This document shows, piece after piece, positions 1,515 through 26,419 of a stretch of DNA of 37,156 nucleotides; within the stretch, counting starts at the first letter, position 1; every line of letters starts with the position of its first letter. The notes under the pieces are model-generated. The model had not been told where the DNA came from. It worked only from the letters and a program-made list of their open reading frames with translations, and ran no database searches. Source of the stretch: a virus (lineage: Duplodnaviria > Caudoviricetes); the IMG/VR virus record IMGVR_UViG_3300021185_000297, positions 1-37,156 of that record. The stretch is one strand, 5' to 3'. The translations under genes were made by a program, and so were the position numbers.

Positions 1515-2267
1515 ATGACAAAGCAATATAAAATAGGTTTATCTTTGTTAATGACTTTTATAATGGCACCCCACGCAAGTGCGGACAACGAGATATATAT
1601 CGACCAAGTTGGTGGAACATCTACTATTGTTATTGAACAAGATGGGTCAGGCAACGTAGTTGGTGGTGATGCATCGCAATTAGCTGCTGGAGCCCCATCA
1701 AAGTTTCTCCTCAATGGCGATAACATAAACTTTAATTCTGTATTCTCAGGTAGTACTAACAAACTATTTGGTGGAATATATGGTGATGGTACTGTAGTAG
1801 ATTTAGATGTTGTAGGTTCTTCGAACACTTTAACATTTGAAGTAGACCCCGACAATGTATATGGTGCGGGAAGTGGAGATTTCCAAATCGATATCTCAGG
1901 TGGTAATAACACTATCGATTGGGGATTTGGTAGAAACGATGCAGCTTCGAATGCAGACGTTGACATGATTCTAGACGGTGATTTCAATACAGCTAACATA
2001 TCGGTAGATGTATCTGACATAACATTGGATTGGGACATTGCAACAAGTAACTCAACACTTGACTACACAGCAACAGGGTATGATGGACATACTGCAACCA
2101 TAACTGGTGATGGTGATTACATGAATTTGGATTTAATCCAATCAAGTACTCTATCAGCAGATACAATAGAGATAGAGTTTGACGGCAATGGTACATCAAC
2201 ATCTAATTCGGTTATTTGTATTCAGCAGTCTGATTCTGGCACCGCTACAAGCAACTGCGGAAACTAA
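1515..2267 (+). CDS. Secreted curlin-like (CsgA/CsgB-type) beta-solenoid repeat protein
   Basis: Signal peptide ending ASA; NEIYIDQVG, IVIEQDGSGN, LDVVGSSN, IDISGGNN, MILDGDFN repeats with alternating hydrophobic residues; G/N/D/S-rich; directly after csgG. Confidence 0.72.
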   Translation: MTKQYKIGLSLLMTFIMAPHASADNEIYIDQVGGTSTIVIEQDGSGNVVGGDASQLAAGAPSKFLLNGDNINFNSVFSGSTNKLFGGIYGDGTVVDLDVVGSSNTLTFEVDPDNVYGAGSGDFQIDISGGNNTIDWGFGRNDAASNADVDMILDGDFNTANISVDVSDITLDWDIATSNSTLDYTATGYDGHTATITGDGDYMNLDLIQSSTLSADTIEIEFDGNGTSTSNSVICIQQSDSGTATSNCGN

Positions 2268-3315
2268 ATCGGATGATGTTGGTTCAGTCAACAAAGCAGT
2301 TGGTTGGAGACAAATAGTACGAGAACAAAATAACATCGAACCCACTATGGGAGAAGATGTAATATCCAAAGACGACCTTCGCACAGGGCAAGGTCGTATG
2401 GAAGTTAAATTTGTTGATGACAGCAAATTGCGTATGACCGAGCATACTCGTATCGTAATTGATAATGTAGTATTTGATGATGACCCAAGTAAGTCTGAGC
2501 TTGCAATGACCTTTGCACAAGGGACTGCAAGATTTGTATCAGGTCAACTCGGAACAATTGATAAAGAAAACATAAGACTCAAAACCCCTAGTGCATCAAT
2601 AGGGATTCGTGGGACTGACTTCACCGTCACGGTGGATGAATTTGGAAGTACCCTCGTGGTACTTCTGCCTGATGTAGACGGTGTATCTTCGGGTGAAATC
2701 ATCGTATCTACCATGACAGGTGAAGTCGTTCTTAACAAACCCTTTGAGTCTACAAGAGTGAGTGTTGCAGAATCAGACCCCTCTACACCCTCTATTCTCA
2801 ACCTCTCTCTTGATATGTTGAACAATATTATGATTATTAACCCACCCAAAAAAGAACTTGCATTCGATGACATATATGGAATCACTAAGAATGGTGAGTC
2901 CACAAACATTCTTGATATCGACTTCCTAGACGATGACTTTGGATTGAGTGAAGATGCACTCGCAGTTGATGAGTTAGAATTTACTGAACTTGATATCGAT
3001 TATCTAGATGTCGAACTGTTAGAAGATGTACTTGATTCATTCGTTGATATAACAGAAGATTTACTCAAAGAGAAAGAAACCTCTTCGGGTCGATTAACTC
3101 TGTCTGGCACAGAAGAAGGATTCGACACAGTCACCCAAGTAGCTACACTAGTTGAAGGTGATAAGGTAGAGTTCCGAAGGGAAGTTGCAGATAGAGCACA
3201 AGTATCTGTTGACCAAGATTCAGAAGCTACAGTCACTATGGAACAGGATGGTAAGTTACTAGAACCCATTATGTTAAATGGTGGTGGAGAAACTACGATA
3301 TTAATAGTGCAATAA
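2188..3315 (+). CDS. Secreted FecR-domain protein with acidic linker and beta-rich C-terminus
   Basis: Signal peptide; FecR-type motifs DDLRTGQGRMEVKFVDDSKLRM, GTARFVSG, TPSASIGIRGTDF; start at ATG 2188 (TTG 2179 is an alternative). Confidence 0.85.
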   Translation: MVHQHLIRLFVFSSLILAPLQATAETKSDDVGSVNKAVGWRQIVREQNNIEPTMGEDVISKDDLRTGQGRMEVKFVDDSKLRMTEHTRIVIDNVVFDDDPSKSELAMTFAQGTARFVSGQLGTIDKENIRLKTPSASIGIRGTDFTVTVDEFGSTLVVLLPDVDGVSSGEIIVSTMTGEVVLNKPFESTRVSVAESDPSTPSILNLSLDMLNNIMIINPPKKELAFDDIYGITKNGESTNILDIDFLDDDFGLSEDALAVDELEFTELDIDYLDVELLEDVLDSFVDITEDLLKEKETSSGRLTLSGTEEGFDTVTQVATLVEGDKVEFRREVADRAQVSVDQDSEATVTMEQDGKLLEPIMLNGGGETTILIVQ

Positions 3316-3324
3316 ATAACAGCT

Positions 3325-5154
3325 ATGAAAACATGGCACGTACTTATAACATTGGGGTTAATGGTTGGACTTAGGTTCCTTGACCCTTTCCTATTAGAGA
3401 GTGTAAGACTCTCATACTTCGATTCACTACAACGGACACAAGATGTATCTGTATCAGAACAGATTGTGTTGGTTGATATTGATGAGAAAACCCTTGACCA
3501 ATTTGGTCAGTATCCTATCCCCCGTAAAGTAATGGCAGATGAAATCGATAAGGTCGATGGTAGTCTTATTGCGTTTAATATCTTGTTCTCAGAAGAAGAC
3601 AGAATGGGTGGTGATGAGTATTTCGCAGATATCCTAGGATGGAAAAACTCGGTGGTTGCAATCGCACCATCTAATAGAACCAATACAGACTATAGACCAC
3701 CCCGTATCGGTACTGCGACATTTGGTGATAGAGATGCAGAAGACTTTCGTCCTGTACTAGATGGAATGTTGTTTGCTCAACCTGTTATCCATGATAACGC
3801 AACAGGATATGGTACGATATCATCCACACAAGATGTTGATGGTATTGTGAGACGTACTGCATTGGTAGAGAACTTTGATGGTAGATTGTATCCCGCATTT
3901 GCACTAGACATATTAAGAGTTGCAGCTGGAGATACTTCTTATCAGATATCTACAGATGACTACGGTATCAAGTTTGTTCGCATACCACAGTTTAAGAATA
4001 TTACAACTGATACTACAGGTAATATCACTATTGCATACTGGAATCAATTCAAGAGATATTCGTTTACAGAACTGGATACTATACCTAAAGGTAGTATCAT
4101 TATTATAGGTGCAACATTCGAAGGTTCTAATGTAGTATCCACACCGATGGGTTCTATGTATCCCCACGACATTCAGGCAAACATAATCAAGACTATGATT
4201 GACGGTGTCGTTTTAAAGCGACAGTCCGAGTATATAGTTTACGAGATTCTTCTTACTGTCATACTAAGTGTCATACTATTACTACTCTTGAAGTATGCAA
4301 GTATTATGATATCAGGAGTGTCATACTTTGTCATACTCGGTGGTCTTGTTACGGGTACGACTTGGTTATTTAAAAATCATTTTGTTCAACTAGACCCAAC
4401 CTTTGCGATTGGTACATTGACCATGATATTCGCACATGGGTCATTCGTACAATTCTACACACAGTTTAAAGCCAAACAAATGATTAAGGGACAGTTTGGT
4501 ACATACCTTTCACCCGACCTTGTTGACCAACTGGCTAATGACCCCGACCTTATGAAGTTGGGTGGTGAGAGAAAAGAGATGACGTTCCTATTCATGGACA
4601 TATGTGGATTTACCCCCATAAGCGAGCATTATAAGAATAACGATGACCCCGAAGGATTGGTAGAACTGATTAATAATTATTTAAATGAGATGACTAATAT
4701 TATTCTAAATAATGGAGGAACAATTGATAAATACATGGGTGACTGTATTATGGCATTTTGGAACGCACCATTACCGTGTGACAATCATGCCGAGATGGCA
4801 GTTAAATCAGCAATTCAAATAGAAGAAAAAACGAATGAACTTAGACGAAAATATCAAGAACAGGGTCTACCCCCCATCAATGTCGGCACTGGTATTAATA
4901 CAGGTGATTGCATTGTTGGGAATATGGGGAGTGAGTCACGTTTTGACTACTCGGTCATTGGAGACGCAGTTAACCTCGCAGCCAGACTTGAAGCAACCGC
5001 TGCTCGAGGAGAATACCTTGAATACAAGACCATCTACTCTAGTAACACAATGGAACAACTTACCACTATTGAGTCGAGACCAATAGGGGAGATTAAGGTG
5101 AAGGGTAAAGAAGAGATGATAGAAATATTTACTTTTAACAAAGAGGATATATAA
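3325..5154 (+). CDS. CHASE2-domain membrane adenylate cyclase (class III)
   Basis: CHASE2 motifs IVLVDIDEKTL-GQYPIPR, ILFSEEDR, DVDGIVRR; three TM helices; cyclase motifs FMDICGFT, IDKYMGDCIMAFW, GNMGSESRFDYSVIGDAVNLAARLE, VKGK. Confidence 0.95.
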   Translation: MKTWHVLITLGLMVGLRFLDPFLLESVRLSYFDSLQRTQDVSVSEQIVLVDIDEKTLDQFGQYPIPRKVMADEIDKVDGSLIAFNILFSEEDRMGGDEYFADILGWKNSVVAIAPSNRTNTDYRPPRIGTATFGDRDAEDFRPVLDGMLFAQPVIHDNATGYGTISSTQDVDGIVRRTALVENFDGRLYPAFALDILRVAAGDTSYQISTDDYGIKFVRIPQFKNITTDTTGNITIAYWNQFKRYSFTELDTIPKGSIIIIGATFEGSNVVSTPMGSMYPHDIQANIIKTMIDGVVLKRQSEYIVYEILLTVILSVILLLLLKYASIMISGVSYFVILGGLVTGTTWLFKNHFVQLDPTFAIGTLTMIFAHGSFVQFYTQFKAKQMIKGQFGTYLSPDLVDQLANDPDLMKLGGERKEMTFLFMDICGFTPISEHYKNNDDPEGLVELINNYLNEMTNIILNNGGTIDKYMGDCIMAFWNAPLPCDNHAEMAVKSAIQIEEKTNELRRKYQEQGLPPINVGTGINTGDCIVGNMGSESRFDYSVIGDAVNLAARLEATAARGEYLEYKTIYSSNTMEQLTTIESRPIGEIKVKGKEEMIEIFTFNKEDI

Positions 5155-5161
5155 TACTATG
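5144..5161 (+). promoter_or_regulatory. AGGATATATAATACTATG motif (probable late-type promoter running into a start codon)
   Basis: Identical 18-mer at 32050-32067; core ATATATAATACTAT also at 31313. Confidence 0.5.
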
Positions 5162-5260
5162 AAGAAAATGAATTGGTTTAAAAGATGGAAGTTCAAAGTC
5201 AAGATGTGGTGGGAACTACGGAAAGCGAAGAAAGACGACCCGTATATTTACGAGGAATAA
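5159..5260 (+). CDS. 33-aa basic/aromatic peptide (MKKMNWFKRWKFKVKMWWELRKAKKDDPYIYEE)
   Basis: Read from sequence, below the ORF-track cutoff; fills the gap between cyclase and carbamoyltransferase. Confidence 0.6.
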   Translation: MKKMNWFKRWKFKVKMWWELRKAKKDDPYIYEE

Positions 5261-5268
5261 CAGATTTC

Positions 5269-6693
5269 ATGTATCTAGGTTGGAGTGAGGGCTTCCATGA
5301 TGCGGGAGTATGTGTTATTGATAATGATGGACACATTGTATTCGCAACACACAGTGAAAGATTCTCAAGAAAAAAACACGACAAGTATATTGGGTATGAC
5401 CTAAAGTCATATATCAATGGTATGTGGAGAGATGATATCGTCCACAAGGCATTCTTCGAGAAACCAATTCTTAAGAAGACTCGACAGTTTTATGCGGGTC
5501 AATACGGGAATGTGTTTAAGAAAAGGTTCCTAACATGGAAACCTGATTCCGTACATCCACACCACAAATCACATGCAGCTGCAGCGTTTCAAACATCGCC
5601 TTATGATGAAGCGGTAACTGTCGTAGTTGATTCTATTGGTGAATGGGACTGTACTACTATATGGAAGTGTTATTATGACAAGAAGGGTAACGCACAATAC
5701 AAGAAAGTGTATAGTGATAAGTACCCAAATAGTATTGGACTATGGTATTCCGCATTGACCAAATACGTAGGACTCAGACCTTTAGATGAAGAATATATCT
5801 TTATGGGTATGGCTGCGTTTGGTAAGGCAACCAAGAAATGTGTAACGGCAGTTGAAAGACTTCTTAAATATGCGAATAATCATAGGGGTATTCCTGAAGG
5901 AACATTAGATTTCCCCGATGCAGATATAGCTGCATCCGCACAAAAAGTACTTGAAAACAAATTGATGGACATCTTTGAGATAGCATCTATGTATTCAGAC
6001 AACGTCTGTTATGGTGGTGGAGTAGCATTGAATTGTGTTGCGAATACAAAGATACAGAAGAGACATCCAAGTCTGTGGATTATGCCGAATCCAGGCGATG
6101 CGGGTGGTTCATTAGGAGCAGCTGCTCTTGCATATGGTGGAAAGGTACACTGGAATGATGCGTTTCTAGGACGTGACATTGATGCATCAACTTTACCCCA
6201 CAAACTTGCAGACGAGATTGTAGAAGAATTAGAGAAAAATGGAGTTGTCGGAGTTGCGGTAGGTAGGTCAGAGTTCGGCCCAAGAGCATTGGGTAATAGA
6301 AGTCTACTTGCTGACCCCCGTGGTAAAGACGCAAAGGATAGAGTAAATGGAATCAAGAAGCGACAAAAATTTAGACCCTTCGCCCCTGTCGTATTGGAAG
6401 AACATGTTGAAGAATATTTTTATTGTCATAGTTCTCGTTATATGTCTTTTGTGTATAGGTCTAGGAGAAATGATGTACCAGCAGTTATCCATAGAGACGG
6501 GACTGCTAGAGTTCAAACCGTACCATATAACTCACCTTCCATCATTCGAATTGTTTTAGAGAAATGGTACGAACGAACTGGGTGTCCTATTCTTCTCAAT
6601 ACAAGTCTTAATATACGAGGAGAGCCTATGGTTGATACTGTAGGTGATGCACACAGATTCGAAGTTAAATATGGAGTAAAGGTTGTCTATTAA
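5269..6693 (+). CDS. Carbamoyltransferase, NodU/CmcH/TobZ family
   Basis: FHDAG, HHKSHAAAAF, DSIGE, EFGPRALGNRSLLADP, FRPFAP, LLNTSLN; start moved to ATG 5269 (GAGGA upstream). Confidence 0.93.
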   Translation: MYLGWSEGFHDAGVCVIDNDGHIVFATHSERFSRKKHDKYIGYDLKSYINGMWRDDIVHKAFFEKPILKKTRQFYAGQYGNVFKKRFLTWKPDSVHPHHKSHAAAAFQTSPYDEAVTVVVDSIGEWDCTTIWKCYYDKKGNAQYKKVYSDKYPNSIGLWYSALTKYVGLRPLDEEYIFMGMAAFGKATKKCVTAVERLLKYANNHRGIPEGTLDFPDADIAASAQKVLENKLMDIFEIASMYSDNVCYGGGVALNCVANTKIQKRHPSLWIMPNPGDAGGSLGAAALAYGGKVHWNDAFLGRDIDASTLPHKLADEIVEELEKNGVVGVAVGRSEFGPRALGNRSLLADPRGKDAKDRVNGIKKRQKFRPFAPVVLEEHVEEYFYCHSSRYMSFVYRSRRNDVPAVIHRDGTARVQTVPYNSPSIIRIVLEKWYERTGCPILLNTSLNIRGEPMVDTVGDAHRFEVKYGVKVVY

Positions 6694-12448: not shown

Positions 12449-13115
12449 ACACGTGAAAACAGAACTTAAAGAAATGGATGCTGTCACTACCGAAACTGGT
12501 AGACAGTATAAGACCCCCGATGGAATTAAACTACCATCAATTACTACCGTCCTCTCAATACTGAGTCGTGACGGTATCGCCGCATGGCGTAAGAAGGTAG
12601 GTGATGCGGAAGCAAACCGAATCTCTTATCGTGCATCTACTCGTGGTACTGCGGTTCACGAGATTCTAGAAAAGTATATCGACAATGAACCTGATTTCAA
12701 AGAAGGTTATACACCCGATATCATCCAATCATTCCTTGCAGTAAAGGACATACTTGATACTCGTATCGGTAAGGTCTATGCACAAGAAGCTCCACTCTAC
12801 TCTACCCATTTGGGTATTGCGGGACGTGTTGACTGTGTTGCAGAGTTCGATGGACAACTATCCATCATTGACTTCAAGACTTCAATGAAAAAGAAACCTA
12901 CTAAGTTCGTAACCAACTACTTCATGCAAGAGTCGGGTTATGCTGTTATGTGGGAAGAACGTACAGGAATGCCAATCACACAACTTGTGACAATCATTTC
13001 GGTGGACAATGATGAACCTCAAGTGTTTATTGAACATCGTGATAACTGGATTAACAGTCTAAAAGATACAATTAAACAGTATAATGAAGAAAACTCTAGT
13101 GCAGTTTTGTTATAA
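12441..13115 (+). CDS. PD-(D/E)xK exonuclease (Cas4/RecB-like, common in T4-like phages)
   Basis: PSITTVLS, RGTAVHE, QEAPLYS, AGRVDC, IIDFKTS, YFMQESGYA. Confidence 0.88.
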   Translation: MFEHVKTELKEMDAVTTETGRQYKTPDGIKLPSITTVLSILSRDGIAAWRKKVGDAEANRISYRASTRGTAVHEILEKYIDNEPDFKEGYTPDIIQSFLAVKDILDTRIGKVYAQEAPLYSTHLGIAGRVDCVAEFDGQLSIIDFKTSMKKKPTKFVTNYFMQESGYAVMWEERTGMPITQLVTIISVDNDEPQVFIEHRDNWINSLKDTIKQYNEENSSAVLL

Positions 13116-13118
13116 ATA
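13111..13118 (+). promoter_or_regulatory. T4-type late promoter
   Basis: TATAAATA ahead of the internal-protein cluster. Confidence 0.8.
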
Positions 13119-13155: not shown

Positions 13156-14445
13156 ATGTTTAGTTTTGCAAGATTCTTGTCAGAGGAAATTGAAGTATCA
13201 GATTTTCCCGCTGATGTATTCGGCGACATACCTGTAGAAAAGAAATCATCTAATAGTAAGACAACTGTACTTGTTGCACGTTCGAATGATAGGCTTACTG
13301 ACCGTGACGAACTGGTACGTAATTTAAAACAGGCAGGCATCGATGCAGAAGTCCGAGAGAAATCAGGACAGTCAGTTGACCCCATTCATATCGACAAAGG
13401 GTTCGATACTAAAGTAATCATATTAGTTAAACCTAAGTCGGGTGGTATTGGTGAGACAACTCTCAATGCATCCATTACTGAACTGTTCCCCGCAATCGCA
13501 TGGGAAAAGAATTTCAACGTTGGAACTAACATCGAAAAGTTCTATGACTTCTTATTAGAACAAGACCCTACCAAATTAAAGTGTGTACAGAAAGCAGACG
13601 CAAAGGCGGCTATCGAAACTATTCAAAAAGCATCCGAATCATCCAAGTTCTCAGAGAAGATGTTGAACGCAATGGGTGTGTACAAATACCTACAGGATGA
13701 AAACAAAAGTAAACCTATCAAGACAGTCTACTGGGGATATCGTGCAAAACCTAAAGGTGTTCCAAAGAACCATCCTGGCGATATCTTTTTAGAATTCCAA
13801 GACGGTGAGATGTTAGGTGTATCACTCAAAGCGGGTGGTAAGAAAACCAAAGAACCCAAACTCAATACATACGTCAATCCTATCTTCGATGCTTTCAAAG
13901 ATAGTGGTGTAAAGAAACTCAGAAAAGACTTGCATGACAAAGTGTATTCTAAGATTGAAGGAATGCCTGATGCACGTTCTTATGATGGTTCAAAGAGACG
14001 TGATACCGCAAAAGCCCTTCTTGACCTATCAAAGAAAGATAATAAAAGGTACGAACAACTCTATGACCAACATCTAGAAGTATGTCGTGGTGCGGTCATT
14101 GACCTATTCAATAAAAACAAAGATAAGACATTGGACTACATTCGTTCAGCAATCCTAAGAGATGCTCCCGATGTTCCTACTAAGGTAATCAAGGCGGTCA
14201 AAGATGACTTCGAAGAGATTACTGCTAATGATGAACTTGGTGTATTTCTTCCTATGGTGAAGTTCATAAAAGCTTACCCATCAAGAACATCAAAACAGAA
14301 TTGGTTCCTTGAATTAAAATCAAAAGATGATACTATCAGTATGGAGATGGCAATTCGAACCAACAAAGCAGGAAACGCTGGTCAGAAAAAACTAGGACAG
14401 TTCTTTAATCTTGCAGTAAAATATAACTCATTGAAAACATCATGA
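13156..14445 (+). CDS. Probable virion-internal protein with a restriction-endonuclease-like motif
   Basis: N-terminus MFSFARFLSEE (capsid-targeting-like); ASITELFP...HPGDIFL...GVSLK resembles the E...D...(S/E)xK nuclease core. Confidence 0.6.
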   Translation: MFSFARFLSEEIEVSDFPADVFGDIPVEKKSSNSKTTVLVARSNDRLTDRDELVRNLKQAGIDAEVREKSGQSVDPIHIDKGFDTKVIILVKPKSGGIGETTLNASITELFPAIAWEKNFNVGTNIEKFYDFLLEQDPTKLKCVQKADAKAAIETIQKASESSKFSEKMLNAMGVYKYLQDENKSKPIKTVYWGYRAKPKGVPKNHPGDIFLEFQDGEMLGVSLKAGGKKTKEPKLNTYVNPIFDAFKDSGVKKLRKDLHDKVYSKIEGMPDARSYDGSKRRDTAKALLDLSKKDNKRYEQLYDQHLEVCRGAVIDLFNKNKDKTLDYIRSAILRDAPDVPTKVIKAVKDDFEEITANDELGVFLPMVKFIKAYPSRTSKQNWFLELKSKDDTISMEMAIRTNKAGNAGQKKLGQFFNLAVKYNSLKTS

Positions 14446-15053
14446 TAAACATGCAACTCTATGACCAAGATTTTGTCAATCCGTTGCCTCATGTATTTGA
14501 TGGTATTGCGGTAATGACACCACCTAAGAATGCGTCTTCACTCATTAATCTCTACTATGGTAGAGAGTGTGGTAGATTGACGTGGCTTGAAGCTGAGTAC
14601 AAAGAGTCTATTGCAATTAAACGTGACCCCATCGATAGATGGTGCGGTGCAATGAATCAACAACGTTGGAGACTCAAACGTCTAATGTCAAATTTTGAGA
14701 TGCTTACTGATAAAGATGTTGAATTTTGGAATCAAAATCCTAATGATATAGTGAAACTTCACGCACCAAAGGATAGTCCAATAAGAAACATATCTGAGTT
14801 TTGTTCTCAGTTTGATTGGGCAGGTTCTACAAAAGAATATGATGCGGTCTACTACTTACATCAAGTAGATGATGTGATAGAAAACGTACTAAAACTAGCA
14901 ACCTATAAGGGTAATCCTATGGGTGAGGTGTATCGACACGACAGTAAGAAAAAAGATATCGAATTAGTTTCAGTTTTCGACTTGACAGAAGAATCAAAAA
15001 AGATTATAATGGAACAAATATATCAAGACGACTACAAATATGGTTGGGTGTAA
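14442..15053 (+). CDS. Sulfotransferase-like protein
   Basis: PPKNASS (5'-PSB-like) and KRDPIDRW (3'-PB-like) motifs. Confidence 0.65.
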   Translation: MINMQLYDQDFVNPLPHVFDGIAVMTPPKNASSLINLYYGRECGRLTWLEAEYKESIAIKRDPIDRWCGAMNQQRWRLKRLMSNFEMLTDKDVEFWNQNPNDIVKLHAPKDSPIRNISEFCSQFDWAGSTKEYDAVYYLHQVDDVIENVLKLATYKGNPMGEVYRHDSKKKDIELVSVFDLTEESKKIIMEQIYQDDYKYGWV

Positions 15054-15722
15054 TGGAACATTTTAAAACATTTATAACAGAACAAAAGAATACTCACATG
15101 ACTCATATTGAGGACAAGGTTCTCTATGGTGGTGTGAAGGGTACACGAGAAGCAATCTTTGCTCTTCGTAATCTACGTGATATGTTAGGTGGAGTTTCTT
15201 CATCTAAACTATCAACTAAGTGGGATGGTGCCCCTGCCGTTTTCTGTGGTCAAGACCCAAGAGACGGTGAGTTCTTTGTTGCGAAGAAGGGTGTGTTTGC
15301 AAAGAGTCCCAAGGTCTATAAGACTGACGAGGAAATCGATGCGGACATGTCAGGTGACCTCGCAACCAAAATGAAACTTGCTCTTAAGCATCTTCCTGAA
15401 TTAGGAATCAAAGGTGTTATACAGGGTGACTTTCTATTCGGTGGTGGAGACGTAGAGACTAAGACTATTGATGGTCAGAAGTATACTACCTTCCATCCTA
15501 ATACTATAATATATGCAATACCTTATGACCAAGCTGCGGAAGTACGCAAGTCAAAAATGGGTGTTGTATGGCACACTACATATAAGGGTAAAGATTTTGA
15601 ATCGATGAAGGCATCTTACGGTGTTGACGTATCCAAGTTCAAGAACTCAAAAAATGTATGGTCACAAGACGCCATGTTGCGTGATGTGAGCGGTGCAACT
15701 ATGTCCAAACAGGAGACAAAAG

Positions 15723-16025
15723 ATGTTAACAAATATTTATCAATCAGTGGTACAATTTTTCAAAAGATTGCTGGGTCAACCCTCAGACAACTCGAAGGTA
15801 ACAAAGACCTCGCCACGCAAATCGAACAGTACGGGAACAAGTTCGTCCGCCAAGGGCAAATCATCCCCGACTCGAAAAGGCACGTCAAAGGCCTCATCAA
15901 GTGGATTAGAGAAAAGTACCAAAAAGAAATCGACAGTAAAAAGAGCGCCAAAGGCAAAGCCAACTGGGAAGCAAAGCAAAAAGACATCCTCAGTTTCTTC
16001 AGTGAAAAAAACCAAAAAAACTTAG
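15723..16025 (+). CDS. Putative overprinted (+1 frame) 100-aa Lys/Ser/Thr-rich basic protein with an amphipathic N-terminus
   Basis: AGGAG at 15711-15715, ATG 15723; host-frame third positions switch to C/A across this interval. Confidence 0.65.
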   Translation: MLTNIYQSVVQFFKRLLGQPSDNSKVTKTSPRKSNSTGTSSSAKGKSSPTRKGTSKASSSGLEKSTKKKSTVKRAPKAKPTGKQSKKTSSVSSVKKTKKT

Positions 16026-16074
16026 TGATGATGTTTGATTTGCAAAAAAATATGGTTTTTGCAAAGTTAAAACT

Positions 16075-16082
16075 TATAAATA
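16075..16082 (+). promoter_or_regulatory. T4-type late promoter (intragenic)
   Basis: TATAAATA about 200 nt upstream of ORF 16276. Confidence 0.6.
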
Positions 16083-16275
16083 AATTAAACAGCATTAGTA
16101 ACATTGATGCATTTGTACAGACCAAACAAGGTTACAAAGTCACAGGTGCAGAAGGATTTGTTGCTATTGAGAATTAGGTGGTGATGCGGTCAAATTGGTT
16201 GACCGTTTAGAGTTTTCGTATAATAACTTCAGTCCTGATGTACTGAAGGGATGGGATAAACCAAAGAGGTAACGT

Positions 16276-16656
16276 ATGTCCAAACCAATTGGATTTAAAA
16301 ATTTTCTAGAATCTTCGGACGAGTTCGTTGAAGCTATGACGTTGCAACAACGTCAAAAGGCAAAACAACGAATGAAAAAACTCGCACCTAAGATTAAAAT
16401 TGCGAAAGCAAAGGCAGCGAAGAAAGTCGCATCTATGGATGTACTGAAGAAACGTGCCAGACTTGCTGCTCGTAATAAACTCATAAAGAAACTCACCAAA
16501 GATGTCCCCAAGGCAGACCTCTCTTTTGCACGTAGAGCAGAGATAGAGAAGAAGGTCGCAAAGAAAGCAGGCGCAATAGAGAAGATTGCAAAGAAACTTC
16601 TGCCTCAGATTCGTAAAAAAGAAATGTCTAAAAAACGTGGTGGTGGTGAAAAGTGA
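16276..16656 (+). CDS. Very basic probable internal head protein
   Basis: GFKNFLE N-terminal motif; K/R/A-rich helical body; GAGG RBS. Confidence 0.7.
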   Translation: MSKPIGFKNFLESSDEFVEAMTLQQRQKAKQRMKKLAPKIKIAKAKAAKKVASMDVLKKRARLAARNKLIKKLTKDVPKADLSFARRAEIEKKVAKKAGAIEKIAKKLLPQIRKKEMSKKRGGGEK

Positions 16657-17975
16657 TTAAGAATTTTAAAGACTATTTGACTGAAGAGACCAAAGAGGTC
16701 TACTTCACATTTGGGAGGATGAATCCCCCTACAATTGGACATGGTAAAGTCTTGGACACTATTGCAAAGAAGGCTAGTGGTGCGGACTGGAAAGTCTATG
16801 TATCACAATCTACTGGTGCAAAAGACCCCCTATCATATTCAGATAAAATCAAACACTTACGTAAGATGTTCCCAAAGTTTGGTCGCAACATCATTGTCGA
16901 TAAGAAAGTAAAGAACGTATTCGATATTGCATCTGCGGTATATGACCAAGGATACAAACGTATCACTATGGTAGTGGGTGATGACCGTGTACGTGAGTTT
17001 GATGTTCTATTGAACAAATACAACGGTAAAAAGGCAAGACACGGATTCTATAACTTTGAGTCAATCAAAGTAATCTCTGCGGGTCGTAGAGACCCTGATG
17101 CAGAAGGTGTTGAAGGAATGTCTGCATCTAAACAACGTGCGAACGCAAAAGAGAATGATTATCAATCGTTCACTCAAGGTGTTCCTAAAAGTATGTCCGA
17201 TAAAGATACACGGAAGTTATTTAACGATGTTCGAAAAGGATTGGGTCTCAAGGAAGAGGTTTCTTTTAAAAGGCATGTTCAACTTCAAACTGTTTCCAAA
17301 ACAAGAGAAGAGTTTGTCAAGGGTGAACTGTTCGAACTTGGTGACTCTGTTGTTATCAAAGAAAGCGAAGAGGTCGGTGTTGTAACTGTCTTGGGTGCAA
17401 ACTACGTTATAGTAGAAATGACTGACGGTAAGAAACTCCGTAAGTGGTTAGATGCAGTAGAGTTAGTTGAAGCAAAGGCACAAGACCCTGACATCAAAGA
17501 TAAAGAAGGTACTCAACCCGCACGTTATCATGCTGGACTCAAGAAGTCTACCAAAGACAAACGTGATGCACACTTCAAGAAACATGGGAAGAAAGCAGAC
17601 GATGATGATTCCGCCTATAAACCCGCTCCTGGCGATGCGACAGCGAAAACGAAACCGTCCAAGTATACCAAAGCATTCAAAGACATGTACGAAGAAGGTG
17701 GAGCAGGAGACTGGGGTACAGACAAACTTCGCAAGAAGTATGAAAAAGACACACCATCCATCGAAGAGGATGCTGGTAAAAGTTTGAAAGATAAGTCTGA
17801 TAAATCAGGCATATCTGTTGCAACATTAAGAAAAGTATATAATCGTGGTGTTGCCGCATGGAAGACTGGTCATAGGCCAGGCACTACTCCACAACAGTGG
17901 GGACATGCAAGGGTTAATGCATTTATAGTCAAAAAGAAAAAAGGTGGGTTAAACCACGATAAGGATTTAGCGTAA
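16653..17975 (+). CDS. HxGH nucleotidyltransferase (phage cytidyltransferase-like) with C-terminal appended modules (DUF5824-like)
   Basis: FTFGRMNPPTIGH, VVGDDRV, SAGRRDPDAEGVEGMSASK; C-terminal YNRGVAAWKTGHRPG-QQWGHARVNAF; N-terminus MIKNFKDYLTEE. Confidence 0.85.
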   Translation: MIKNFKDYLTEETKEVYFTFGRMNPPTIGHGKVLDTIAKKASGADWKVYVSQSTGAKDPLSYSDKIKHLRKMFPKFGRNIIVDKKVKNVFDIASAVYDQGYKRITMVVGDDRVREFDVLLNKYNGKKARHGFYNFESIKVISAGRRDPDAEGVEGMSASKQRANAKENDYQSFTQGVPKSMSDKDTRKLFNDVRKGLGLKEEVSFKRHVQLQTVSKTREEFVKGELFELGDSVVIKESEEVGVVTVLGANYVIVEMTDGKKLRKWLDAVELVEAKAQDPDIKDKEGTQPARYHAGLKKSTKDKRDAHFKKHGKKADDDDSAYKPAPGDATAKTKPSKYTKAFKDMYEEGGAGDWGTDKLRKKYEKDTPSIEEDAGKSLKDKSDKSGISVATLRKVYNRGVAAWKTGHRPGTTPQQWGHARVNAFIVKKKKGGLNHDKDLA

Positions 17976-19099
17976 TGAAAACACTTCAACAAATACTCGA
18001 ATATGGTGGCCCAAAGATTTCTCGAAAGGATTATCTGAAACAAGATGATTTTAAACCCCATATGATGTATGACCCTGAGACAGGTAAAGGTTACAAGGCA
18101 GAGAAACCTGAAGACCATGAACGCATGAAGAAGATGGGTTACACCCATGACAAACCTGAACTTGAAGAAGGTCGTATGAAAGAACTTCATGGTTATATCG
18201 ACAAGGGTATGTCTGCACAACAGATTGCGAAGAAGATGAAACTTGATGTCAAAACAATAAAATCATTGATGGACGAAAGTGTTAATGAATCAAAATCCTC
18301 AACGGGTTATGACCTGTATCATAAAACATTTAGTGGTGCTATGCAACATTCTTATGCATTTGCTAAGAAGAAGTTTGGTATCGAAGTAGACCCTGATGAG
18401 ATTGACAATAAGGTCGCAATGGGGCCTAAGAAACCATCCAAAGGTAAAACCAATTCATATCGTCTGAAAGGAAAAGATGGTAAGAAAGGTATTCAAGTAC
18501 AAGTAGCAAACCTAGATAACAAACGATACGAGTTAAATATGTATAAAGAGTCCGTACAACTAGACGAGTCTGTAATCGATGATGTAAAAGACATTGTTGC
18601 GAAGAAACAGGCAAAGAAAATCCAAGGTGTCATGGTTGATATGTTCACCGCATCCGCTATCTCACAGATTTATGACAAGGTAAACGATACCAATAAAGCA
18701 AAGATGGAAAAGTTAAAGATTACCAAACTTGCTGACCTTGCATTCAAAATCATGAAGAAAGAAGAAATCAAAGAAGGTGCAAGGGATGATGCAAGACGAG
18801 CTATGTCTGCTGACCCCGACTTCAAGGACAAAGATAGTAAGGATATCAAAGCGACTGACGATGACCGTAAAGCTGCGGACAAGAATCCTATCATTCAGTT
18901 ACGTAGAATCTCAGACTTACCCAAAGGTGGTAAGATGGAATTTAAAGATAAGAAGACTGCCAAGATTAGTCAAGCAGATGCAAAGAAAGCCCTACGTGGA
19001 TTCAATGCAATGCGTAAAGCGAAGGATAAGGTTAAGTACACCGATACGGTTGGTAAGTCTCTCGCAGACCTCAAAAGAATTCTAAAGATTATTCGATGA
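17975..19099 (+). CDS. Modular Lys-rich probable internal head protein
   Basis: MKTLQQILE N-terminus; short modules bounded by LEE/VNE/LDE/IKE. Confidence 0.7.
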   Translation: MKTLQQILEYGGPKISRKDYLKQDDFKPHMMYDPETGKGYKAEKPEDHERMKKMGYTHDKPELEEGRMKELHGYIDKGMSAQQIAKKMKLDVKTIKSLMDESVNESKSSTGYDLYHKTFSGAMQHSYAFAKKKFGIEVDPDEIDNKVAMGPKKPSKGKTNSYRLKGKDGKKGIQVQVANLDNKRYELNMYKESVQLDESVIDDVKDIVAKKQAKKIQGVMVDMFTASAISQIYDKVNDTNKAKMEKLKITKLADLAFKIMKKEEIKEGARDDARRAMSADPDFKDKDSKDIKATDDDRKAADKNPIIQLRRISDLPKGGKMEFKDKKTAKISQADAKKALRGFNAMRKAKDKVKYTDTVGKSLADLKRILKIIR

Positions 19100-19521
19100 T
19101 TAAGTTCGACACATTTTCTATCATCTATGAGAAGGCGGTTTCTGTTCAACAACAGAAGTTGATGGCACTCGCATATAAGTATAAGAAAGGTGAACTGGAA
19201 GACGATAAGGTATCCGATGTTGTCAAGAAACTTGCGGGAGAGATGTCAGAGAAAGACCTCGAAGATTTCGCAAAGACTAAACACAAAGGACTACCCGATA
19301 AGGTAGAAGAAGGTACTCTCCAAGAACTTAGGACAACTTTAGTTACTGGTGATAGTGAGGGATTAGATTTCATTCTAAAAGACTTAAAGAAGAAGATGTA
19401 TAATGATATACGTCACAATAAATTAAAGTTTGTTAATGGTATTGCAAAATTTGTTAATATCAAAATTGATAAAGATAAACAACAAAAGGGGAGAATGGCT
19501 ATATCGCCACTCGGAAAATAA
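19096..19521 (+). CDS. Protein with a DUF3008-like module
   Basis: AVSVQQQKLMALA...MSEKDLEDFAKTKHKGLP. Confidence 0.65.
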   Translation: MIKFDTFSIIYEKAVSVQQQKLMALAYKYKKGELEDDKVSDVVKKLAGEMSEKDLEDFAKTKHKGLPDKVEEGTLQELRTTLVTGDSEGLDFILKDLKKKMYNDIRHNKLKFVNGIAKFVNIKIDKDKQQKGRMAISPLGK

Positions 19522-19757
19522 TGAAATCATTCAAGACACTTCAAAACGAAATCAATATCGGAAAACAAAAGAGACCACCTGCTACAAAGAAGGTGCAACT
19601 CTATGGTTCTGAGATTAGTGGTTTAAAGAATGCAAAAGGTAGACCGTTTACAGCAAAACCACAGGTTTCAGGTGGTAAGTTGGTATACAGGGTTACCGAT
19701 GAGTTTGGTTCTTTCACTACTCTTAACTTAAAAGCATTTGCGAAGATGTTTGCCTAA
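19521..19757 (+). CDS. Small basic hypothetical protein
   Basis: TAATG coupling on both sides; MKSFKTLQNE N-terminus. Confidence 0.7.
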   Translation: MKSFKTLQNEINIGKQKRPPATKKVQLYGSEISGLKNAKGRPFTAKPQVSGGKLVYRVTDEFGSFTTLNLKAFAKMFA

Positions 19758-24430: not shown

Positions 24431-26419
24431 ATGACGATAAAAATAGATAAGAAAAAGGATGACCTACTCGCCTCATATGCAGTAGGAATGTTAAAGGACT
24501 TCTACCTAAAAGACCACGAAAAATCACCACAAGAAGGATTTGCCAGAGCAGCAAAAGCTTGGTCTAAGTATAAGGACGAAATGGATGAAGAACTCTCAGA
24601 ACGTCTTTATAGTTATGTTAGTAATAAGTGGTTTATGTACGCTAGTCCAGTACTTAGCAATGCCCCGAATGGAGAGTCTAAAAAAGATAAGGGGATGCCA
24701 ATTTCTTGTTTCCTTACTTACGTCCCTGATACTCTTGAGGGTCTCATATCTCATAGTTCTGAGTTACGTTGGCTTAGTGTTTATGGCGGGGGTGTCGGGG
24801 GTCATTGGTCTGACGTGCGAACCGTGTCTGACATTGCTCCAGGCCCAATTCCCTTCCTTCACACAGTAGATGCAGACATGATTGCTTACCGTCAAGGTAA
24901 GACACGTAAAGGTTCATATGCCGCATACATGAGTGTGCATCATCCCGACCTAATGGAATTCTTAAACATCCGTATTCCTACGGGTGATGTGCAACGTAAA
25001 GCATTGAACATTCATAACGCAATTAATATTACAGATGAGTTCATGCAGGCGGTTATCAACAATACCGATTATGAACTACGTGACCCTAAGAACGATGAAG
25101 TAAAAGATACTGCAAATGCACGTAAGGTATGGGAGAGAATTCTAGAAGTTAGATTTAGAACAGGTGAACCCTATCTAAACTTTATTGATACCGCAAACAA
25201 ATCATTACCTCAGAACCTAAAAGACTTGGGTCTAAAGATTCATGGGTCAAACCTATGTAACGAAATTCACTTACCGACAGATGCAGACAGAACTGCGGTC
25301 TGTTGTTTATCATCACTAAACTTGGAGTATTACGATGAATGGAAAGACACGACTATTGTCCGTGATATTGTTAGGATGCTTGACAACGTCTTGCAGTACT
25401 TTATCGATAACGCCCCCGATACCATTTCAAGAGCGAAGTACTCTGCTGAAAGAGAACGAAGCATTGGCTTGGGTGCAATGGGATTTCATTCCTTATTGCA
25501 AAAACACGGTGTCGCTTGGGAGTCGGAAAAAGCAAGAGAAATCAACAAAGTTGTGTTCCAACACATCAACGAACAAGCAGTTGCAGAAACAGAACTACTC
25601 GCAGAAGAACGTGGAGAGTATCCTGATGGGATTGGTACGGGAAGAAGAAACTCCCATCTCATAGCGATTGCCCCGAATGCATCCAGTGGTGTCATTCTAA
25701 GTACAAGTCCATCTATTGAACCATTGAAAGCAAACGCATATACACATCGTACACGTGCGGGTTCATTCTTGGTCAAGAACAAATACCTCAGTAAACTATT
25801 AGATGAGAAGGGTAAGAACACTGATTCTACTTGGACATCTATTATTACTGCAAAGGGTTCTGTACAACATCTACCATTCTTCACTGAAGGTGAGAAAGCA
25901 ATCTTTAGAACTGCGGATGAACTAGACCAAATGTGGTTGGTCACCCATGCAGCTGAACGTCAAGAGTTTATCTGTCAAGGACAATCCGTTAATCTATTCT
26001 TCCCTAGTGGTGCAGATAAGTCATATGTTAATATGGTTCACTTTAATGCATGGAAAAAAGGACTTAAAGGTCTGTATTACCTAAGAACAGAATCAAGTTC
26101 TCGTGCAGAGAATGTATCCGAGAAGGTAGAACGTGTCGCACTATCACAAGACAATCGTAGTATCATCTATGGTAAGAAAGATTGTCCGTTTTGTGCAATG
26201 GCAAAAGAAGAATTAAAACTTAGAGGTATTGTGTATGATTACATTGACCTCGAAGATATTGGCAAGACTGCCAAAGAGGTGACAGGTCGTAATGTTAAAA
26301 CAGTCCCCCAAATCTATATCGAAGGTGAATATGTAGGAGGTTATGATGAACTTATGACATACCTAGATGCAAATTCAGATACAGATGATGGAGAGGAATG
26401 TAAAGCGTGCGAAGGTTAA
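24431..26419 (+). CDS. nrdA: Class I ribonucleotide reductase alpha subunit, no ATP cone, with an embedded C-terminal glutaredoxin domain
   Basis: ASPVLSN, PISCF, GSNLCNEI, VCCLSS, IAPNASS, KGLYY; then CPFC...TVPQIYI-GEYVGGY; terminal CKACEG. Confidence 0.96.
   Translation: MTIKIDKKKDDLLASYAVGMLKDFYLKDHEKSPQEGFARAAKAWSKYKDEMDEELSERLYSYVSNKWFMYASPVLSNAPNGESKKDKGMPISCFLTYVPDTLEGLISHSSELRWLSVYGGGVGGHWSDVRTVSDIAPGPIPFLHTVDADMIAYRQGKTRKGSYAAYMSVHHPDLMEFLNIRIPTGDVQRKALNIHNAINITDEFMQAVINNTDYELRDPKNDEVKDTANARKVWERILEVRFRTGEPYLNFIDTANKSLPQNLKDLGLKIHGSNLCNEIHLPTDADRTAVCCLSSLNLEYYDEWKDTTIVRDIVRMLDNVLQYFIDNAPDTISRAKYSAERERSIGLGAMGFHSLLQKHGVAWESEKAREINKVVFQHINEQAVAETELLAEERGEYPDGIGTGRRNSHLIAIAPNASSGVILSTSPSIEPLKANAYTHRTRAGSFLVKNKYLSKLLDEKGKNTDSTWTSIITAKGSVQHLPFFTEGEKAIFRTADELDQMWLVTHAAERQEFICQGQSVNLFFPSGADKSYVNMVHFNAWKKGLKGLYYLRTESSSRAENVSEKVERVALSQDNRSIIYGKKDCPFCAMAKEELKLRGIVYDYIDLEDIGKTAKEVTGRNVKTVPQIYIEGEYVGGYDELMTYLDANSDTDDGEECKACEG
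24585..24869 (+). CDS. Candidate nested (+1 frame) 94-aa membrane protein inside nrdA
   Basis: TAAGGA 8 nt before ATG 24585; open for 94 codons; atypical GGG/GGC codons in the nrdA frame. Confidence 0.3.
   Translation: MKNSQNVFIVMLVISGLCTLVQYLAMPRMESLKKIRGCQFLVSLLTSLILLRVSYLIVLSYVGLVFMAGVSGVIGLTCEPCLTLLQAQFPSFTQ
25335..25664 (+). CDS. Candidate nested (+1 frame) 109-aa lipoprotein inside nrdA
   Basis: GGAG 7 nt before ATG; MNGKTRLLSVILLGCLTTSC has a basic n-region, h-region and lipobox-like Cys. Confidence 0.42.
   Translation: MNGKTRLLSVILLGCLTTSCSTLSITPPIPFQERSTLLKENEALAWVQWDFIPYCKNTVSLGSRKKQEKSTKLCSNTSTNKQLQKQNYSQKNVESILMGLVREEETPIS

Follow-up and report, generated by a model that had tools for sequence, protein, structure and literature searches.

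The DUF6267 gene in a virus record of IMG/VR displays a stretch that is poor in codons ending in T, and the question raised by this locus is whether the stretch marks a second gene, read in the +1 frame of the first. The whole stretch of DNA analysed, 37,156 nucleotides in length, is called the window here. It is a fragment of the virus record and shows the gene content of a T4-like marine phage, including ribonucleotide reductase, PhoH, an exonuclease, a cytidyltransferase and 2OG-Fe(II) oxygenases. DNA near-identical to the window is found in seawater metagenomes. The nested frame had been proposed in an initial annotation; its signals, its distribution, the selection that acts on it and its possible function and origin are reported below.

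The nested open reading frame

The host gene (DUF6267, phrog_455) is situated at positions 15053..16271 on the + strand. Within it and on the same strand, a Shine-Dalgarno (SD) sequence, AGGAG (15711..15715), is found 7 nt before an ATG that opens a 100 aa open reading frame, 15723..16025, with the stop TAG at 16023–16025. The frame is +1 relative to the host gene, which starts at 15053, and its assignment is based on frame, conservation and codon bias. The SD, the ATG, the 100 codons and the peptide described in the initial annotation are all present in the sequence. Codons 3–17 (15729..15773, + strand) encode a predicted amphipathic helix whose hydrophobic face needs T at host position 3, and a T-poor, C-rich stretch at 15780..16022 (+ strand) corresponds to a predicted disordered tail of Ser, Lys, Thr and Pro.

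Open +1 runs of more than 100 codons are found in 4 of 28 open reading frames of the window, the host gene included, the longest being 119 codons. Thus an open +1 run is not rare in the window, and it is the codon bias together with conservation that carries the case. T at host position 3 shows a minimum of 5/80 codons in the host gene compared with 13–25/80 in 27 other long open reading frames. Over the nested stretch 5 of 81 host codons end in T; when the host codons were redrawn at random among synonyms 20,000 times, following the codon usage of the window, the mean was 22.2 (sd 3.4) and the minimum 9. In 47 of these draws the +1 frame was open over the same 100 codons, and in 2 it was open with an SD and ATG.

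The bias had been described as a shift from T-ending to C- and A-ending codons. The loss of T stands and so does the gain of C (0.51 vs 0.17 in the non-carriers defined below), but A is not raised overall (0.30 vs 0.32) and is favoured only within Lys, Glu and Gln codons, with 0.77 inside the stretch vs 0.62 outside. The described return to normal codon usage 3′ of the nested stop is confirmed in the window. In nested codons 1–13 the bias is reversed and T is enriched. The third position of a host codon is the second of a nested codon, and T at that place encodes a hydrophobic residue; the enrichment is what the hydrophobic face of a helix needs.

Conservation in homologous loci

Three scans with host proteins, in which the nested frame was not used as a query, yielded 129 distinct homologous genes; two of the three queries came from carriers of the nested frame, so near relatives are favoured in this set. 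Of the 129, 14 are T-poor, and every one of these has an ATG and an open frame of 86–100 codons. The nested gene therefore has a narrower distribution than the host frame, and since most relatives are without it, it is dispensable. Addition of the matches of the nested alignment gave 148 distinct host genes; four loci that are only partial were omitted, as were L041 and L230, the copies belonging to the window itself. The frequency of T at host position 3 (T3) is bimodal in these genes: 31 are at 0.12 or below, none falls between 0.12 and 0.16, and the rest are centred near 0.3.

The T-poor genes are termed carriers here. L192, with a T3 of 0.18 and an intact start and frame, was put among them by hand; seven loci with <50% identity were omitted from the carrier and non-carrier counts, and L232 was too short for the tree. 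All 32 carriers have the ATG and the open frame and 31 have the SD with the ATG (GGAG or GAGG), although 18 of the 32 came from searches with the nested protein as query, a bias in favour of such tests. The 109 non-carriers include 38 with the ATG, 11 with SD and ATG, and 7 with an open +1 frame. Carriers reach down to 57–60% host identity to the window, and a metagenome scan with the nested profile gave 30 loci, all 30 in the +1 frame of DUF6267. Conservation of the SD, ATG and open frame had been suggested in the initial annotation as a check on the gene, and it is borne out in the carriers. Homologues that keep the bias and lack the SD or ATG, or that have stops in the frame, were named there as the case against the gene; they were looked for and not encountered.

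Most carriers outside the window's clade display a +1 stop directly 5′ of the nested ATG. Entry by frameshift from the host frame was also considered and is unneeded given this stop.

Several related loci show only part of these features. In the closest relative (92%), at L001:3677-3970, the ATG used in the window is gone; the frame begins two codons further on, and the shared SD is 13 nt away. The T loss in L001 is weaker than in the window, and the locus may represent start-codon turnover or early decay. Eight intermediate loci (L251, L259, L260, L088, L186, L106, L108 and L120) combine an ATG with 67–87 open +1 codons, and their T loss is weak or absent. Some of them carry the N-terminal helix, and they may be proto-genes or decaying copies. 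In three true RNA runs no contig covers the nested ORF, a result that is limited to contigs and proves nothing.

Selection on the +1 frame

Over nested codons 90–100, T3 is 7/99 in the long forms of the nested gene compared with 43/121 in short forms that have already stopped and 236/823 in non-carriers. Thus the end of the bias tracks each member's own stop, and the bias belongs to the +1 frame. Seven host codons (TTA, CTA, TTG, CTG, ATA, GTA and GTG) yield stops or Tyr, Cys or Trp in the +1 frame. They occur 0 times in 1260 codons of the carriers' core, compared with 515/4900 outside it and 374/4725 in the core of non-carriers. At many Leu, Ile and Val codons of the host a single synonymous change would suffice to place a stop right behind the helix, and none is used in the core, which indicates that tail length is kept. 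The ratio of host synonymous divergence in the core to that outside is 0.53 (0.34–0.75) in 11 carrier pairs and 0.97 (0.85–1.09) in 39 non-carrier pairs. The constraint on synonymous sites that the initial annotation had proposed to look for is thus present, with divergence halved in carriers only.

T is found at 5–6 of 6 helix-face codons in 19/20 carriers vs 5/75 non-carriers, the six codons having been chosen after the T enrichment of the N-terminal codons had been seen; the retrieval of 18 of the 32 carriers through the nested protein favours this comparison too. Synonymous constraint at the helix codons is not different from that in non-carriers (0.65 vs 0.79). Between the window and L001, 21 of 27 differences change the nested residue, and pNN/pNS at host position 1 is 0.52 (0.25–0.97) in carriers vs 0.72 in non-carriers. 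Among four runs there is a single variant inside the ORF; in this one case the host residue is altered and the nested residue is kept. Constraint on the nested frame at the level of residues appears weak, and selection is mainly on composition, which is the expectation for a disordered tail.

The bias might have a cause other than a +1 gene, such as an antisense ORF, an RNA structure, codon choice for expression level, or chance. The in-register antisense frame is open over the core in 19/20 carriers vs 8/75 non-carriers, and the +1 frame itself is open in 7/109 non-carriers too. However, the openness of the antisense frame follows from the loss of TTA and CTA, and this frame has no ATG in 20/20 carriers, shows no shared SD and start, and has ends that vary from 66 to 271 codons. 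Folding is no better than that of shuffled sequences (z-score = −0.93) and there is no Rfam match. Antisense ORF, RNA structure and Rfam family were rejected as causes of the bias. That the bias tracks the +1 stop also argues against a cause outside the +1 frame, as does a survey of 494 long ORFs in the window and 7 other records, where a T-poor stretch is combined with a long +1 frame only at DUF6267 loci. An explanation without a +1 gene is thus considered highly improbable. The nested +1 frame, as predicted from sequence, is in all probability a real gene, and the overprinted gene is very likely translated into a protein of 80–100 residues. The predicted gene displays the features by which overprinted genes are recognised: a start of its own, conservation, a narrower distribution and synonymous constraint.

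The host gene and its operon

DUF6267 is present in 468 phage records. The host protein has 406 aa in the closest relative, but the window copy of the gene ends early, at 16177. Since the contigs of six runs have one extra base near 16170 and relatives have ~406 aa, the early stop is an assembly error, a base missing near 16170, and the gene is no pseudogene. The full-length gene (~406 aa) keeps the last ligase-type motif. A model of the L001 homologue (pLDDT 84.5) suggests an RNA-ligase-like protein; the top six rows of the structure comparison are RNA ligases (Z 7.2–8.4, rmsd 4.0–4.4, 174–195 aligned), with a Z near 8 being the comparison tool's caution line. Foldseek gave no match to the host model at E up to 0.001. 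Residues K56, D58, G125, D126, E367, G368 and K381 are invariant in 49 sequences; ATP-dependent RNA/DNA ligases with the nucleotidyltransferase fold have a KxDG motif and further motifs downstream of it.

The nested ORF overlies host residues 224–324. These lie inside an all-helical insert, ~219–346, that evolves 1.7-fold faster than the rest of the host protein, in carriers and non-carriers alike. Distant DUF6267 homologues (L035, L036, L037 and L040) extend to 540–650 aa. L035 and L036 are probably fusions with a cytidyltransferase, because their C-terminal words resemble the cytidyltransferase of the window.

The host gene is part of an operon at 13156–19757 that also includes the cytidyltransferase and a very basic 126-aa protein. 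The gene starts of this operon resemble T4 capsid-targeting leaders. Those at 13156, 15053 and 16653 match the capsid-targeting pattern, and those at 16276, 17975 and 19521 are similar without a match; the pattern is our own, is based in part on general features of such leaders, and misses some likely operon members. A T4-type late promoter consensus, TATAAATA, is found at the operon head (13111..13118, + strand), and a second one is situated within the host gene, just 3′ of the nested stop (16075..16082, + strand). The consensus at the second site is shared by 15/18 carriers and 71/74 non-carriers. In the window 8 of 8 matches to the consensus are on the + strand (chance expectation 2.5), and they presumably act as late promoters as in T4.

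There is also a perfect sigma-70 consensus, TTGACA-17-TATAAT, at 14982..15010 (+ strand), 43 nt 5′ of the host ATG and within the 3′-terminal part of the preceding ORF. L001 and L002 have this site too. With at least 11/12 matches it is seen in 3/18 carriers and 2/74 non-carriers and is not general among carriers. In the window's clade it would add early expression to an otherwise late, capsid-tagged DUF6267 gene.

The predicted protein

The AlphaFold model of the nested protein shows a single helix at residues 3–17 (pLDDT ~75) and no other structure. The hydrophobic moment of the helix is 0.65 in the window and 0.63–0.83 across 36 peptides, and its charge is +1 to +4. None of the 36 peptides has a transmembrane-grade segment (highest 19-residue Kyte-Doolittle value 0.77) and none has a Cys. 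The tails consist of 22% Ser, 21% Lys, 15% Thr and 10% Pro, and the net charge is +13 to +27 in 33 clear members. Conservation in kind is confined to the first ~13 residues, and neither the sequence nor the length of the tail is constant (80–100 aa). The amphipathic N-terminal helix and the K/S/T-rich tail of the initial annotation are thus supported by prediction, from the AlphaFold model, the moment and the disordered tail.

The non-carriers separate cause from effect in this composition, as their passive +1 frame is hydrophobic and selection in the carriers has reversed this. Hydrophobic residues amount to 0.057 in carriers vs 0.325 in the passive +1 frame. Lysine is 0.198 vs 0.091 passive and is higher in 10/10 lineage pairs, and arginine is halved. 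Net charge is 0.207 in carriers vs 0.152 passive, so about three quarters of it is already present in non-carriers; of the 10 lineage pairs, 7 show a higher net charge in the carrier, 2 a lower one and 1 a tie. The suggested selection for a hydrophilic Ser/Thr/Lys protein therefore holds for low hydrophobicity and the gain of lysine, but for the most part not for the basic charge. Going by these frequencies, the basicity is mostly inherited from the host frame, whose helices are Lys/Glu-rich, and what is selected is lysine over arginine and the lack of hydrophobic residues.

The protein had also been described as histone-H1-like. Tails of histone H1 and of HC1/HC2 are lysine-rich, low-complexity and disordered, as is the tail here, but the nested protein is without a globular domain and is Ser/Thr-rich, not Ala-rich. 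The likeness extends to composition and not to family: a Pfam search of 23 members, with E up to 0.1, gave no match to H1, HC1 or HC2. Repeats of S/T-P-x-K/R are an H1 tail motif; they show no excess here, with 21 observed vs 24.6±4.5 in shuffled tails. Histone H1, a spanin or lipoprotein, a T4 30.3′ homologue and a capsid-tagged protein were each ruled out by tests.

Searches of Pfam, PHROGs, NCBIfam and PDB sequences gave no usable homologue of the nested protein outside the DUF6267 locus, and tblastn against phage records gave no match. The Atlas returned only unnamed clusters at 0.78–0.82, under the Atlas lead threshold, and no named cluster. In two protein sets of billions of sequences (searched in part by word index, at near lengths only) the family is absent save for one chimera, which indicates that gene callers miss it, as the initial annotation had held. 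The chimera, P0001, is a 202-aa database protein in which the DUF6267 N-part is joined to the nested frame. It is a single record and probably represents a contig frameshift, although it may be the product of a programmed shift. The nested profile found only the DUF6267 locus in two of five non-carrier records and nothing in the other three. A composition filter for a stand-alone analogue, applied to three non-carrier records (65–88% complete) with the last 859 bases of G003 excluded, gave none and returned one acidic 45-aa ORF.

Possible function

A weak amphipathic helix that continues into a long, disordered and lysine-rich chain would most simply serve to anchor a polyanion at the inner membrane. 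In the mechanism proposed here, tentatively and by analogy, the nested ORF would be translated via its own ribosome-binding site on the mRNA that also carries the host gene. The N-terminal amphipathic helix would lie in the host inner membrane, as in Noc, and the disordered Lys/Ser/Thr/Pro tail, to judge from the doubling of lysine, would bind nucleic acid. The protein would thus form a small membrane-to-DNA tether during infection, and might help to stage DNA for replication or packaging. By prediction the helix fits the criteria of Noc and of MinD-type membrane-targeting motifs, being short, with a basic-flanked hydrophobic face and no transmembrane span.

In Bacillus subtilis Noc, as described in the cited part of PMC4331003, a conserved N-terminal amphipathic helix of ~15 residues is followed by a variable part, and the short helix together with DNA binding recruits DNA to the membrane; the same membrane-DNA coupling is predicted here. 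However, DNA binding by Noc involves a folded ParB-type body and specific sites, whereas the nested protein has only a disordered tail and shows no homology to it. T4 proheads nucleate at the inner membrane, according to the section cited from PMC5694885, which with the late-promoter operon makes a role in DNA staging plausible.

Amphipathic helices can bind protein as well as membrane. The product of a real gene might accordingly bind a host defence or division target, or the ligase-like enzyme, through its helix and have the tail as a soluble spacer. Such a function would agree with conservation in kind that is limited to the first ~13 residues, with the variable tail, with the largely passive charge, and with a patchy presence over the tree that fits an accessory, host-dependent role. 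It is a serious rival but is nevertheless judged rather unlikely, since the easy stops are avoided in the core (0/1260), so that tail length is kept, and lysine is up in all ten lineage pairs.

The membrane tether can also be compared with a virion-internal DNA-neutralising protein, that is, a late-operon product whose helix docks on the prohead core and which is packed with the DNA. The operon with its late promoter consensus would suit such a protein, as would the capsid-targeting-like motif found in 81/91 host N-termini and three window operon genes. In T4 heads the only contacts with DNA phosphates seen in the cited part of PMC3012670 are made by lysines of internal proteins, which fits the preference for lysine over arginine here. 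However, the motif is found in 0/36 nested N-termini. T4-type propeptides have 10–20 residues and are cleaved after Glu, as given in the cited section of PMC5694885, but a Glu within the first 15 residues is found in only 1/36 nested peptides, and this function, although a serious rival too, appears unlikely.

The frame might also be translated for regulation, by ribosome traffic on the host mRNA, with the peptide selected only to be harmless. Selection that is mostly compositional, with hydrophobic residues at 0.057 vs 0.325, and the weak constraint on residues are what this would give. Harmlessness, however, needs neither the hydrophobic helix face that is kept (19/20 vs 5/75) nor the raised lysine, and no gene start is found near the nested stop; regulation of this kind is therefore very unlikely.

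Rz1 is nested in Rz, the o-spanin being encoded with a lipoprotein signal and a Cys inside the i-spanin gene. A lysis gene or lysis helper of this type, or like the Sgl genes, would have a precedent for +1 embedding, as 21/33 active Sgls are embedded in the rep +1 frame in the part of PMC7693330 cited here. The absence of a transmembrane segment and of Cys in all 36 peptides argues against it, and the host gene encodes a ligase-like enzyme (DUF6267), no spanin. Lysis is scarcely probable, and the membrane-to-nucleic-acid tether is the function tentatively retained.

Comparison with other overprinted genes

The initial annotation cited T4 gene 30.3′ as a precedent. In arrangement this is so, since 30.3′ is nested in 30.3 in the NC_000866 annotation and, like the present ORF, is small and basic and translated internally, out of frame with the T4-type phage gene around it, but the sequences are unrelated (E = 12). 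The 30.3′ product has 75 aa of ordinary composition, is not low-complexity, and lies in a different host gene. No primary paper on the nesting of 30.3′ was found in a search that had most subscription literature outside its scope.

Viral overprinted accessory genes, in the passages of a review cited here (PMC8227390), show a restricted distribution in an older family, a disordered product and the +1 frame, as the nested gene does. Those passages cover small eukaryotic viruses of <30 kb, whereas the present phage has ~150 kb. They describe de novo +1 proteins as enriched in hydrophobic residues, and here these are depleted (0.057 vs 0.325 passive). The sgl genes of ssRNA phages, as presented in the cited part of PMC7693330, likewise occupy the +1 frame of an enzyme gene, in its less conserved parts, and their repeated de novo origin is documented there. 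They differ in showing little mutual similarity and occupying many sites, whereas the nested gene is found at the same site with the same design, and its protein has no transmembrane segment. The C proteins overprinted on P in the Sendai group belong to an animal RNA virus, have a folded helical C-terminus and show no homology to the nested protein; in the section cited, one origin with subsequent loss is the authors' preferred account (PMC3934983).

Among large dsDNA phages, overprinted genes with good support are rare. No publication on the nested gene, and none for 'DUF6267', was found at title level, most subscription literature being outside the scope of the search. The nested gene is accompanied by ~110 homologues without the overlap and by several intermediates; the review, in the part cited, calls for comparison with the 'pre-overlapping region' (PMC8227390). 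The dip in T3 is a signature that offers a cheap screen for further hidden genes.

Origin

In a host tree built from columns outside the overlap the carriers fall into six separate pure groups, which corresponds to 6 gains, or to 11 losses after one gain. The AU test rejects carrier monophyly outside the overlap (p = 0.0008) and does not reject it inside (p = 0.21); it was done after a first tree had been seen and with the carrier group defined by codon bias. The scatter of carriers over the host tree makes repeated birth possible. Carriers are situated near the base of the tree, which would also agree with a single old origin followed by many losses, or with recombination. In our judgement one old origin with many losses has close to an even chance, repeated de novo birth at the same site is rather doubtful, and recombination as the source of the scattered carriers is unlikely.

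The start in the window's clade is mostly two codons upstream of that in other carriers and has a different SD codon pair; L001, the closest relative of the window, uses the common start. The window's overlap is equally close to other carriers and to mid-distance non-carriers (0.57 and 0.57). Little relic bias is seen in 16 sister non-carriers (index 0.26, −0.78 to 1.23), in a range that includes the prediction of loss.

Repeated birth is favoured by the rejected monophyly outside the overlap, by the 6 gains set against 11 losses, by the differing start and SD codon pair of the window's clade, by the equal distances of its overlap and by the scarcity of relic bias. In this scenario the conserved helix of the host would already spell an amphipathic helix in the +1 frame. 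Separate lineages would each add a start signal, clear the downstream frame by synonymous changes and converge on one design. L251, L259, L088 and L106, which show the start and helix with a short hydrophobic tail, would then be proto-genes underway. If the origin was repeated, the locus would offer naturally occurring replicates of a gene birth de novo.

Other features of the window

The closest isolated relative of the host gene is that of phage C48C1 (66%), a non-carrier, which shares the gene order with the window. A 203-aa ORF at 14442–15053 is missing from the corresponding place in C48C1. Family searches gave no match to this ORF, and two short words in it resemble what we take to be sulfotransferase PAPS-binding motifs. 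At 2179–6693 there are consecutive genes for a FecR-domain protein, a CHASE2 adenylate/guanylate cyclase and a carbamoyltransferase, which is a phage-borne block for signalling and modification. The ribonucleotide reductase large subunit at 24431–26419 has a glutaredoxin domain fused at its C-terminal end.
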